Origin: Eubacteriales bacterium
GTDB taxonomy: Bacteria; Bacillota; Clostridia; Oscillospirales; SIG627
Assembly (NCBI GenBank): GCA_045602025.1
Contig: JAZSAT010000004.1
Location: 7,464 to 71,463, forward strand
Direction of reading: 5' to 3'
Length of the DNA stretch: 64,000 nucleotides
A model generated the notes under the pieces. It was not told where the DNA came from. It saw only the letters and a list, made by a program, of their open reading frames with translations, and made no database searches. Below are positions 18,558 through 28,254 of the stretch, piece after piece (position 1 is the stretch's first letter; each line of letters opens with the position of its first letter). A program made the position numbers and the translations under genes.

Positions 18558-20033
18558 ATGATCTATCGCAGTACCCGAAGCAATACCACCGCTTCTCCCG
18601 CAGAAGCGATCTTAAGAGGCATCGCCCCCGACGGCGGTCTTTATCTTCCCGAAGAATTTTCCTTCCCCACCTTCTCCGCAAAAGAGACGGTAGAAAAGGA
18701 TTTCTACGGCATTGCCACCGATGTACTCTTTGCCCTCTTTCCCGAGTTTACAAGGGAAGAAGTGGCAACCATGGTGAAAAACGCCTACGACGGAAAATTT
18801 GAAACCGAGGATGTGACTCCTACCGTAAAGGTGGGCGACACCTATGTTTTGGAGCTGTTTCGCGGTCCTACCTGCGCATTTAAGGATGTAGCCCTTTCCA
18901 TTCTCCCCCACCTTTTGGTGGAAAGCCGCAAGAAGAAAGGGGTCAAGGACGACATCGTGATCCTCACCGCTACCAGCGGCGATACGGGTAAGGCTGCTCT
19001 TCAGGGCTTCCAGGATGTGGAAGGCACCAAAATTCTTGTCTTCTTCCCCCACGGCGGTGTCAGCCGTGTGCAGAGAGCCCAGATGGTCACTCAAAGAGGA
19101 AAAAACACCTTCGTTGCCGCCATTGAAGGCAACTTTGACGATGCTCAGACCGGTGTAAAGAATATCTTCTCCGATTTTGAAAAAAAGGGTACCATGGACG
19201 GTACAGGCGCACGCCTTTCCAGTGCCAATTCCATCAATATCGGCCGTCTTGCACCTCAGATCGTTTATTACTTCAAGTCCTACGGCGACCTGATGCGCGA
19301 AGGAAGAATCACCTTTGGCGATAAGGTGGATTTTGTAGTACCCACCGGCAACTTCGGCGATATTCTGGCAGGCTATTTTGCACTCCTTCTGGGTCTTCCC
19401 GTGGGTAAGCTCGTTTGCGCCTCCAATAAAAACAATATCCTTACCGACTTTATCCGTACCGGCACCTACGATAAGCGCCGCCCCTTCTATCAGACCACAT
19501 CCCCCTCGATGGATATTTTGGTCTCCAGTAATCTGGAACGCCTTCTCTTTATGATGTCAGGCGGTGATGATAAGGCCGTTGCCTCCTGGATGCAGTCTCT
19601 TGGTACCGAGGGCATCTACAAGATCCCCGCTGAGCTTCTTGAAAAGCTTCAGAAAGAATTTTCCGGCTACGACTGTGACGATGAAAAGGCCGCAAAGATC
19701 CTGGGCGAGGTTTATAAAGAGACCGGCTATGTGTGCGACCCCCATACCGCAGTTGCCATGAGTGCCGCAAAAGATTATATGAAGGAAGAAGGCACAACTT
19801 GCCCCGTGGTGGTTCTCTCTACCGCTTCTCCCTTTAAGTTTTCAAGACCCGTCCTTTCTGCCATCGGTGAAAATGCCGAGGGAGACGAATTCGATCTCCT
19901 TCGCCGCCTTTCCGAGAAAACAGGCCTTCCCATCCCGAAGAGCCTTGCCGAACTGGAATCCCTTCCCGAGCGTCACAAAACCGTCATTGCAAAAGACAAA
20001 ATGCCCGCCTTCGTTTTGGAGAACATTAAATAA
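18558..20033 (+). CDS. thrC: threonine synthase (long form)
   Basis: PLP-lysine motif GPTCAFKDVALS and 491-aa long-type architecture. The last ~24 nt lie inside direct repeat DR1. Confidence 0.9.
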   Translation: MIYRSTRSNTTASPAEAILRGIAPDGGLYLPEEFSFPTFSAKETVEKDFYGIATDVLFALFPEFTREEVATMVKNAYDGKFETEDVTPTVKVGDTYVLELFRGPTCAFKDVALSILPHLLVESRKKKGVKDDIVILTATSGDTGKAALQGFQDVEGTKILVFFPHGGVSRVQRAQMVTQRGKNTFVAAIEGNFDDAQTGVKNIFSDFEKKGTMDGTGARLSSANSINIGRLAPQIVYYFKSYGDLMREGRITFGDKVDFVVPTGNFGDILAGYFALLLGLPVGKLVCASNKNNILTDFIRTGTYDKRRPFYQTTSPSMDILVSSNLERLLFMMSGGDDKAVASWMQSLGTEGIYKIPAELLEKLQKEFSGYDCDDEKAAKILGEVYKETGYVCDPHTAVAMSAAKDYMKEEGTTCPVVVLSTASPFKFSRPVLSAIGENAEGDEFDLLRRLSEKTGLPIPKSLAELESLPERHKTVIAKDKMPAFVLENIK

Positions 20034-20035
20034 AA
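20008..20035 (+). repeat. direct repeat DR1 (candidate attL): CCTTCGTTTTGGAGAACATTAAATAAAA
   Basis: 27 of 28 positions identical to 28227-28254. Covers the final thrC codons and its stop. Confidence 0.85.
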
Positions 20036-20041
20036 GCTCTT

Positions 20042-20076
20042 GCCCGACTTCCAAAAAGGAAGCTCGGGCATTTTTT
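20042..20076 (+). terminator. rho-independent terminator now serving thrC
   Basis: gcccgacttcc/ggaagctcgggc stem followed by T6. Confidence 0.75.
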
Positions 20077-20088
20077 ATCCCCTTTATC

Positions 20089-20124
20089 AAAAGACACAAG
20101 GGCAATGCCCTTGTGTCTTTTTTT
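20089..20124. terminator. hairpin terminator downstream of the 1650-aa gene
   Basis: agacacaagggc/gcccttgtgtct 12-bp stem with A/T runs on both sides. Confidence 0.7.
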
Positions 20125-20134
20125 ACTGAAAGAA

Positions 20135-27213: not shown

Positions 27214-27260
27214 GGCGATGTATTGTCACAGGTGTTTTTCTTTTTGTGTCAATATGTAGA

Positions 27261-27282
27261 AACATAATGTCAATTATGTCGC
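27261..27282. repeat. IR-R: AACATAATGTCAATTATGTCGC
   Basis: Reverse complement of IR-L with one mismatch. Central core GTCA versus TGAC in IR-L. Confidence 0.9.
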
Positions 27283-27305
27283 ATCCGCAAGGGTGCTTTT
27301 TTTTA
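27281..27305 (+). terminator. plus-strand rho-independent terminator immediately outside IR-R
   Basis: gcatcc-gcaa-gggtgc hairpin followed by T8. It would stop transcripts from the OFF-oriented promoter before they run antisense into the recombinase gene. Confidence 0.65.
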
Positions 27306-27320
27306 TTTAAAAATAAAAAT

Positions 27321-28163
27321 CTACAGAATCAGATGAAGCTTTTCCATTCGGCGGCGATGGGTCATGGCACTGGCGGCGGTATAAATTCGAGTGGTATTGA
27401 TGCTGCTGTGACCGAGAACATCCGCAAGAAGCACAATGTCCTTCTCGATTTTGTAAAATGTTCTTGCAAACAAATGCCTTAGGTTATGGGGGAAAACCTT
27501 CCCGGGCGAAACACCCGCCTTTTTGCAAAGCCCCTTCATCTCCCGCCAAACACAGCATCGGTTTATGGGCTTTCCCTTCTTTGTAATAAAGATAGGCCCT
27601 GATGCGATCCCTTCTTTCTTAGTATAAACCAGCAATTTCTTTTTCAGCTCCGGAAGCAAAAACACCCTTCGGCTTTTTCCCTTGCAGTTCACCTGCGCTT
27701 CCCCACGAAGCACACTTTCCACGGTAATAAAGGGCAATTCGCTGATTCGGATCCCGGTGGTACAGATCGTCTGCAGTATCAAACAAAGTCTTTGATTTCC
27801 CCTTTTCTCCGCTTCTCTTACCAAGCGATGGTATTCCTCCCGATTCAGCTCCCTCTCCTCCGGGATAAAAACACTTTTTTGCACCTTGAAGCGGCGGAGC
27901 AGCACCTCTTCCCAACCCATAAAGTGAAAAAAAGAATTCAGTGCCGCGATCATGGAATTTGCGCTGGAAAGAGCGTAGTTTTCTTCTAAATGCTTTTTAT
28001 ACTGTTTGGTAAGATCTTTTGTTATATCCTTGTTTTGAACAAAGTCTGAAAAGTATGCTACATCGTGCCGATATTTTTCCACGGTAGCATCACTTTTTTC
28101 CATATCTATCAAATACTTTGAAAATAAATCGATGTTGTTTTTTGTAATCGTTCTGTCAGCCAA
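27321..28163 (-). CDS. tyrosine site-specific recombinase (XerC/D-like size, 280 aa)
   Basis: SAM-like N-domain. Catalytic R (TGIRISEL), HxxR (HNLRHLFA), H (GHSSINTT) and Y (RIY). TTG start with a GGAGGG SD; the nearby ATG is out of frame. Confidence 0.85.
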   Translation of the reverse strand: MADRTITKNNIDLFSKYLIDMEKSDATVEKYRHDVAYFSDFVQNKDITKDLTKQYKKHLEENYALSSANSMIAALNSFFHFMGWEEVLLRRFKVQKSVFIPEERELNREEYHRLVREAEKRGNQRLCLILQTICTTGIRISELPFITVESVLRGEAQVNCKGKSRRVFLLPELKKKLLVYTKKEGIASGPIFITKKGKPINRCCVWREMKGLCKKAGVSPGKVFPHNLRHLFARTFYKIEKDIVLLADVLGHSSINTTRIYTAASAMTHRRRMEKLHLIL

Positions 28164-28226
28164 AAAACATCCCTCCTTTTTGTATGGTTTTCACCGTTTT
28201 TCTTCTTATTATACAAAAAAGATACA

Positions 28227-28254
28227 CCTTCGTTTTGGAGAATATTAAATAAAA
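28227..28254 (+). repeat. direct repeat DR2 (candidate attR): CCTTCGTTTTGGAGAATATTAAATAAAA
   Basis: 27 of 28 positions identical to DR1. A remnant copy of the thrC 3' end. Confidence 0.85.

Follow-up and report, generated by a model that had tools for sequence, protein, structure and literature searches.

A probable lineage-specific insertion at the 3' end of thrC carries a putative phase-variation cassette in an uncultured gut Clostridia bacterium

Introduction

Contig JAZSAT010000004.1 of the Eubacteriales bacterium assembly GCA_045602025.1 (Oscillospirales, SIG627) contains an 8.2-kb segment, here called the island, between two 28-bp direct repeats of the 3' end of thrC, the threonine synthase gene. 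We propose that the island is a lineage-specific insertion, a self-contained phase-variation cassette that was probably acquired by one crossover at the end of thrC. Three parts would make up the cassette: an Xer-like tyrosine recombinase, a promoter segment of ~200 bp bounded by inverted 28-bp dif-like sites, and a three-gene operon, which the recombinase would switch on or off by flipping the segment. A circular form of the cassette, equipped with a thrC-end copy and a terminator of its own, would have recombined with the chromosomal thrC end in one reciprocal crossover, whose junctions would be the two direct repeats. Because the crossover supplied a replacement end, thrC would have stayed intact while the former gene end and its terminator came to lie on the other side of the island. 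The crossover was probably catalyzed by something other than the resident invertase: a trans-acting integrase, an integrase that has since disappeared, or host recombination at the short homology. The island can now probably leave only by deletion between the repeats.

All coordinates refer to the analyzed window, the whole 64-kb stretch of DNA, which the scans for repeats, position weight matrix (PWM) matches and open reading frames (ORFs) cover unless stated.

Direct repeats duplicate the 3' end of thrC

The two junctions of the island are defined by the following features.

18558-20033, plus strand: thrC, threonine synthase, 491 aa (Pfam Thr_synth_N, PALP, THR4_C); the target gene, intact through direct repeat 1
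20008-20035, plus strand: direct repeat 1 (DR1), CCTTCGTTTTGGAGAACATTAAATAAAA; last 7 thrC codons (AFVLENIK), stop and AAAA; left junction of the island
20041-20077, plus strand: intrinsic terminator now serving thrC, inside the island; hairpin 20041-20070 and T-run, -20.1 kcal/mol, z -4.5
28227-28254, plus strand: direct repeat 2 (DR2), CCTTCGTTTTGGAGAATATTAAATAAAA; thrC-end copy displaced to the right junction of the island
28255-28296, unstranded: bidirectional terminator right of DR2; -25.2 kcal/mol, z -4.9

The sequence CCTTCGTTTTGGAGAAYATTAAATAAAA is present exactly twice in the window, as DR1 and DR2, which are equal at 27 of 28 positions. They are the sole matches at up to three mismatches, and none appeared in 100 dinucleotide-preserving shuffles. 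A repeat finder returned the pair at 96% identity without extension beyond the 28 bp. The lone mismatch, C to T at repeat position 17, is synonymous (AAC/AAT). The first-pass annotation had described 28-bp repeats duplicating the thrC 3' end, each followed by its own, different terminator and unrelated to the inverted repeats at 27030 and 27261; its coordinates were right, both terminators are strong by folding, and a comparison of the direct repeats with the inverted repeats, which belong to the switch described below, found nothing in common. It is noted that DR2 overlaps the -35 region of the recombinase promoter, with the -10 hexamer TATAAT at 28214-28209 on the minus strand, as read from the sequence aligned to relatives.

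The island is absent after thrC in sister species

No strain-level relative was found in the collections searched, and exact look-ups of the thrC and flavodiiron proteins of the window returned none on record. A thrC scan of metagenome contigs gave relatives at no more than 58% identity, and a scan of genome contigs gave one close relative, whose contig ends 177 nt past thrC. The nearest relatives are sister species, since the thrC protein is only 93-94% identical to those of contigs L001 and L044 and the gene only ~87% identical in nucleotides.

Relative to these species the segment is an insertion. BLAST similarity to the window stops exactly at 20035, the last position of DR1, in L001 (93% thrC), L044 (94%) and L045 (84%), and at 20023 in L046 (83%). 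The terminator at 20041-20077 is not present after thrC in any of the four. In L044, a single contig runs from thrC through a 63-aa helix-turn-helix (HTH) gene (0.33 kb) to a terminator and a GTTCC...GGAAC hairpin. These two elements align to window 28255-28340, that is, to the 28255-28296 terminator and the next hairpin at 28313-28340, with a score of 58 against a shuffle maximum of 41, and L044 continues into copies of the repeat element found at window 28445-28593. Judged from sequence, the 28255-28296 terminator is probably the ancestral thrC terminator.

The first genes of the right flank served as the second anchor of the comparison.

28591-28749, minus strand: rubredoxin, first right-flank gene, then flavodiiron protein (28787-29941) and DUF4432

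In L001, the 170 nt past the thrC stop share homology, in reverse complement, with the terminal 150 nt of contig L054, a stretch 380 nt past the rubredoxin gene in an 85% relative; this sequence was found once per locus (L001, L054). In L053, which belongs to the same metagenome-assembled genome (MAG) as L001, the flavodiiron and rubredoxin genes lead into the equivalent of window 28404-28590. The first bases past thrC in L001 (AAAAAGAACACCCGAA) resemble those past DR2 (AAAAAGAAAACCCCGGAA), not those past DR1. The proteins of the L001/L053 MAG are in the database searched for recombinases (see below), yet no close homologue of the island recombinase was found there. The BLAST end points, the L044 contig, the L001/L053/L054 contigs and the MAG data thus agree in pointing to a former adjacency, in which thrC and the rubredoxin gene would have been convergent neighbours a few hundred bases apart, with the island lying exactly between the repeats.

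An element inserted at the thrC 3' end had been proposed in the first-pass annotation, together with a search for its empty site. The segment does represent an insertion compared with the nearest relatives, ends at the repeats and keeps thrC intact, while the exact empty site was not recovered. The comparison provided the absence of the island after thrC in L001, L044, L045 and L046 and the linkage of its flanks, all of it among sister species with diverged intergenic DNA.

The thrC 3' end is a variable hotspot, as three close relatives each carry different DNA there. The L044 gene (1972-2163) encodes an Xre-type HTH protein and starts 6 nt past the thrC stop, with no flanking repeat and no thrC remnant. 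A decayed thrC 3' remnant after this gene, which would have pointed to recurrent gene-end replacement, was rejected, since the BLASTP comparison with 120 thrC proteins did not exceed a control with reversed sequences. A DUF1292 gene comes after thrC in the 83-84% relatives (L045 7556-8050, L046 11568-12045); in the window this gene is at 17-506, 18 kb upstream of thrC. The displacement makes the thrC 3' end a synteny breakpoint as well.

The recombinase belongs to a family that is linked to invertible sites

The recombinase and the switch next to it comprise the following features.

27321-28163, minus strand: Xer-like tyrosine recombinase, 280 aa; TTG start 63 nt from DR2; Pfam Phage_int_SAM_1, Phage_integrase
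27257-27284, unstranded: right recombination site, a near-copy of the left site in inverted orientation; PWM 22.3 bits
27056-27256, unstranded: invertible segment with two promoter-like sites on the plus strand
27028-27055, unstranded: left recombination site, TTGCAACATAA-TTGACA-TTATGTTGCAA; 11-6-11, dif-like; PWM 31.1 bits
27281-27304, plus strand: small hairpin and T-run, -9.8 kcal/mol, z -3.2

The catalytic R, HxxR, H and Y are visible in the recombinase, and R139, H226, R229, H252 and Y261 are invariant in an alignment of 26 of the best family homologues, which align without length variation at 78% mean column identity. The nearest NCBIfam models are XerA, XerD and XerC, and the best solved relatives are XerA and XerD structures. 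All scores remain under the equivalog cut-offs (score/cut-off in bits: XerA 139/220, XerD 115/330, XerC 109/335, XerS 58/267). A search of 5.8 billion proteins gave thousands of matches and no recombinase more than 62% identical except the window's own; the best 120 are almost all 275-296 aa in length and 56-62% identical. About 8,000 scored database proteins have E <1e-20, a number that is an upper bound because this cut-off admits more distant tyrosine recombinases too. No member above 48% identity was seen as an annotated phage integrase or plasmid gene. Among relatives in culture, homologues at 47-48% identity occur in Monoglobus, Pusillibacter and Subdoligranulum.

We took 35 family loci from genomes, metagenomes and predicted proviruses, and 24 distinct ones hold sequence past the recombinase gene. 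Switch sites follow the gene in 16 of these 24 (L047, L048, L052, L056-L059, L061-L063, L066-L069, L078 and the window), which establishes the link between recombinase and switch at the level of the family. The sites have inverted arms of the ACATAA-N6-TTATGT type, are 172-252 bp apart, bounding segments of ~170-260 bp, and start 1-193 nt past the stop, and same-strand cargo comes next. Their consensus, ATACAACATAA-N6-TTATGTTGTAT, is sharply defined. Inverted repeats with other arms are found in L073 and L074, and the most distant family members (35-42% identity) have no such inverted sites. The cargo differs among the loci, with proteins lacking a Pfam match in L047 and L048, SPFH/zinc-ribbon sets in L052 and L068, a restriction-modification methylase and helicase in L057 and L059, and cohesin-dockerin surface proteins in the window.

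A half-site weight matrix (consensus ATACAACATAA) was built from 13 other loci, with the window left out. The two inverted sites of the window rank first and second in the 64 kb at 31.1 and 22.3 bits, the next best 28-mer scoring 9.2. The inverted repeats are the cognate sites of the recombinase, because a family matrix derived from other loci ranks them at the top. Inversion itself was observed in one relative. Locus L048 and loci L049, L050 and L051, from four samples, have an identical recombinase and flanks of 98.7% identity, and the inner 215 bp of L048 (10906-11120) are 99.5% identical to L049-L051 as the reverse complement only, with 25.6% identity as given. The switch segment of the family therefore flips in nature, since L048 and L049-L051 hold opposite orientations. 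From these sequence comparisons, the evidence points to the recombinase being a dedicated invertase of the adjacent switch.

A significant link between inverton group 139, which is dominated by Clostridia, and group 35 of tyrosine recombinases (invertases) has been reported (PMC11892184). That group 35 may be the same family as the recombinases described here.

Two side observations concern other loci of the family. A 2.5-kb block is 99% identical between L058 (687-3179) and L059 (8786-11278) and spans the recombinase and its switch, with 1.2 kb on the upstream side and another 160 nt past the switch, and the two loci differ completely on both sides of it, cargo included. This points to a recent exchange of the block or of the cargo. 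Many IMG/VR contigs, among them L060, L064, L065, L070-L072, L075 and L077, end 0-190 nt past the recombinase gene. Assembly breaks at a switch that occurs in both orientations would be expected to give this pattern, and so would provirus callers that read the gene as an integrase.

The switch is predicted to be in the OFF orientation

The intergenic region between the recombinase gene and the 54-aa ORF, the first gene of the operon, is 316 bp in length, and the recombinase gene ends 36 nt from the right switch site. The inverted repeats at 27029-27051 and 27261-27283 (23 nt, 96% complementary, 209 nt apart) are the sole two matches in the window. Both 28-bp sites are palindromic in themselves, in an 11-6-11 arrangement around an asymmetric centre, as are dif and the sites of other simple tyrosine recombinases.

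The two promoter-like sites, at 27122-27151 and 27185-27213 (TG-extended -10), are matches to a sigma-70-type consensus, and both lie on the plus strand, pointing away from the cargo. No minus-strand promoter was predicted between 27005 and 27320. Because these consensus promoter matches point away from the operon, it is predicted to be currently OFF. Inversion would aim the promoters of the segment at the 54-aa ORF and the two surface-protein genes. In the OFF state, the hairpin at 27281-27304 would stop transcripts before they enter the recombinase gene in antisense.

Cargo and composition of the island

The operon and the terminator at its end are listed below.

26840-27004, minus strand: 54-aa ORF, first gene past the switch; GAAGGAG ribosome-binding site upstream; MNQTKAAYQTPTVKVIQFTTEDVL...
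25106-26824, minus strand: 572-aa secreted protein; Pfam Cohesin, Flg_new, Flg_new_2
20135-25087, minus strand: 1650-aa secreted protein (the giant gene); Pfam Dockerin_1, Flg_new, LRR_5
20089-20121, unstranded: bidirectional hairpin terminator at the 3' end of the giant gene, beside its stop codon; 16-nt perfect arms, -23.5 kcal/mol, z -6.1

The content of the island is as the first-pass annotation had listed it, namely two giant proteins, a 54-aa ORF and a tyrosine recombinase. All the genes between the repeats are on the minus strand, and there is almost no spare DNA. The 1650-aa protein has a signal-peptide-like N-terminus, an N-terminal cohesin-like module, a dockerin, Listeria-Bacteroides repeats and BspA-type leucine-rich repeats (LRRs). 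The 572-aa protein has a signal-peptide-like N-terminus, Flg_new (Listeria-Bacteroides) repeats, one LRR and a C-terminal cohesin. The 54-aa ORF has no Pfam or NCBIfam match despite its strong ribosome-binding site. Scans for Rfam families and tRNAs gave no match within the island or next to it, the sole tRNA of the window being at 7409-7484.

A 226-nt stretch is 83% identical between the 5' part of the giant gene (24682-24907) and the 572-aa gene (25219-25444). It encodes the cohesin module (...VLKLSWEEGLTLTA.ENGSAFSALSLTGSK...), and its presence in both genes suggests a duplication or gene conversion inside the island.

Part of the cargo had been noted as more AT-rich than the flanks, and the profiles of third-position GC content (GC3) and codon usage bear this out for the giant gene only. 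Its GC3 is 0.38, and 0.30-0.33 over the central 2.5 kb, compared with 0.547 +/- 0.06 for the 47 other ORFs of the window, which puts the centre of the gene at least 3.5 standard deviations (SD) under the local GC3. Its codon-usage distance of 0.43 is high for the gene length. The foreign-composition signal is real but mosaic, being confined to part of one gene.

Which activity made the proposed crossover

The first-pass annotation had left it open whether the one recombinase performs integration, inversion or both. The loci of its family favour inversion, and a role in integration found no support, as the PWM detects nothing at the direct repeats. DR1, DR2 and the reconstructed attachment sites attP and attB score -6.6 or lower in the family PWM, compared with 22-31 bits for the switch sites, and the 28-bp direct repeat has no inverted arms. 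The ends of the island show no terminal inverted repeat above shuffles (score 19, null maximum 25), and Pfam detects no transposase domain. Inverted repeats just inside the direct repeats are found neither in the window nor in L068, and L057 has one 22-nt pair. No excisionase-like gene was found in the island by Pfam and NCBIfam scans. With the matrix, the arms, the terminal repeats and the gene scans all negative, there is no sequence support for the invertase acting on the direct repeats.

Long direct repeats flank the recombinase and cargo in two of 14 other family loci. In L057 the repeats, identical at 30 of 32 positions, enclose the recombinase and switch together with the methylase and helicase beside TnpV; in L068, with 38 of 40, they enclose the recombinase and switch together with four genes after a phage holin. 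Neither pair is related in sequence to the other or to the thrC end. Similar repeats occur in two of 73 control windows, so the enrichment is not significant, and flanking repeats were rejected as a family trait, the remaining 12 loci lacking them. It should be mentioned that the repeats of L057 (9596-9643 and 16428-16475, plasmid-like) and L068 (9817-9860 and 14535-14578, lysis region of a prophage) are duplicated terminator hairpins. L068 was also rejected as a clean insertion with duplication, since the related phage L086 has an endolysin gene in place of the module.

Several observations weigh against acquisition of the cassette by one crossover at the end of thrC. The nearest thrC genes are ~87% identical in nucleotides uniformly along the gene, the distance of sister species, in which a loss is conceivable. 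The arrangement of thrC running straight into the 28255-28296 terminator is not on any single contig, with the HTH gene at that place in L044, and the link between the flanks in L001, L053 and L054 was pieced together from contig ends. The composition of much of the island is host-like, with GC3 values of 0.50 for the 572-aa gene and 0.51 for the recombinase gene, and the first kilobase of the giant gene is ordinary. No circular form or second copy of the island was found anywhere, and attP is a reconstruction. Finally, the place of the recombinase gene, 63 nt from DR2, is the classical position of an integrase gene and favours an enzyme with two functions.

Such an enzyme would make the island a minimal mobile genomic island, in which one recombinase integrates and excises at the thrC-end repeats and inverts at the dif-like sites. 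Simple tyrosine recombinases such as Cre, Flp and Xer integrate, excise or invert DNA according to the arrangement of their sites. Besides its position in the usual place of an int gene next to an att site, the recombinase is the only one in the island, and L057 and L068 also carry long direct repeats. We consider this explanation unlikely in view of the score of -6.6 or lower of the direct repeats, attP and attB against 22-31 bits for true sites, the repeat without inverted arms, and the lack of an excisionase-like gene. The flanking repeats at other loci add little to it: 12 of the 14 loci are without them, the proportion is not clearly above that of the controls, and the L057 and L068 pairs are terminator hairpins unrelated to the thrC end.

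An origin that requires no attachment site is improbable to a similar degree. Linear donor DNA with the island after thrC would have entered by homologous recombination in thrC on the left. On the right it would have been joined illegitimately, 28 bp short of the recipient's thrC end, so that DR2 would be a leftover of that end. The right-hand copy does lie directly against the apparent ancestral terminator, the repeat is without features of a recombinase site, and the thrC end is a variable hotspot in three close relatives. However, the divergence along thrC is not mosaic, as it would be around an imported tract, even if more closely related genomes would make the comparison more sensitive, and the origin of the junction between thrC and island is only shifted to an unseen donor. 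No spare DNA separates the recombinase promoter from the left edge of DR2, as fits the defined end of an element.

It is a rather remote prospect that the cassettes of this family are themselves mobile, inserting by gene ends or terminators and flanked by target duplicates of 28-48 bp, with the invertase or a host Xer-type activity doing the inserting. The thrC island, L057 and L068 would then be three captures, and the block common to L058 and L059 would be another trace. Least credible of all is an ancestral arrangement that was lost in the relatives, with the repeat as a chance or regulatory duplicate: the comparisons are indeed at the sister-species level only and most of the island is host-like in composition, but a 27/28 match is not chance, the loss would have had to end precisely at the thrC stop codon in each of three relatives, the giant-gene centre is at least 3.5 SD low in GC3, and the recombinase has no close homologue elsewhere.

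Intergenic repeats beside the island

Short intergenic repeats that contain a hairpin (GTCGAAAG...GTTCCTTTTT-N-AAAAAGGAAC) are scattered in the window and in the sister species.

28294-28337, 28403-28446, 10232-10375 and 35543-35579, and L001 457-752, unstranded: hairpin-containing repeats of one sequence family

These repeats probably explain the breaks of MAG contigs near thrC. A second element, a repeat of ~124 bp resembling a miniature inverted-repeat transposable element (MITE), lies between the rubredoxin gene and the island at 28470-28593, with the ends GTAAAACCCG...CGGGTTTTAC. It is not at the same spot in L053, where there is a single AAACTTT(G/A)TAAAA compared with two flanking copies in the window. 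A second copy lies 7 kb away at 35546-35734, and L044 has two tandem copies (2345-2595).

Significance and comparison with known systems

The locus shows an uncultured gut Clostridia bacterium gaining a ready-made on/off module for cohesin-dockerin-LRR surface proteins, with the housekeeping gene undamaged. It is also a testable case, as the position of the recombinase suggests an integrase and the evidence from its family says an invertase. The cargo of the family spans surface proteins to restriction and defence genes, and the site model could map phase-variable loci of Clostridia without read data. If it is true that the enzyme carries out both reactions, the island would be an unusually small self-mobile and self-regulating unit.

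Invertible promoter switches with a tyrosine invertase include fimS with FimB/FimE in Escherichia coli and cwpV with RecV in Clostridioides difficile. The island resembles them in its short promoter segment between inverted repeats, the adjoining tyrosine recombinase, the surface-protein cargo and the finding of both orientations in a relative. It differs in having full 11-6-11 dif-like palindromes, an Xer-like enzyme, and a cassette bounded by direct repeats of the end of a housekeeping gene.

A further comparison is with the Xer/dif system for chromosome dimer resolution and the elements that exploit Xer (PMC5357621). The island's enzyme has the domain architecture of that system, and its 28-bp sites have the same 11-6-11 layout and ...CATAA-N6-TTATG... 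arms. Unlike Xer/dif, the locus has two inverted sites ~200 bp apart beside the recombinase gene instead of one at the replication terminus, and the equivalog scores of the enzyme are far below the cut-offs.

Integrative and conjugative elements (ICEs), integrative and mobilizable elements (IMEs), integrase-only 'mobile genomic islands' and cis-mobilizable elements (CIMEs) have been defined in Firmicutes (PMC7563491). Like those that insert at the 3' ends of genes, the island has direct repeats duplicating the target 3' end, an intact target, a tyrosine recombinase beside one repeat and adaptive cargo. Unlike ICEs, IMEs and mobile genomic islands, it has no heterobivalent integrase, excisionase, relaxase or replication gene, its recombinase has other cognate sites, and no excised form or second copy is known. 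CIMEs are decayed islands that keep att sites without recombination genes of their own; what identifies them is their descent from an ICE or IME, or their tandem accretion with one (PMC7563491). Should the resident enzyme be an invertase and nothing more, the island would be like a CIME in carrying cargo between att-like repeats without its own integrase; it is unlike CIMEs in that no ICE or IME relative or partner was seen here and its coding density leaves no room for gene remnants. Under the definitions of PMC7563491, an integrating enzyme would make it a 'mobile genomic island', and an enzyme that does not integrate would make it CIME-like. Neither the inverton nor the gene-end island is a new kind of locus, and the segment behind thrC is a tidy example of both.

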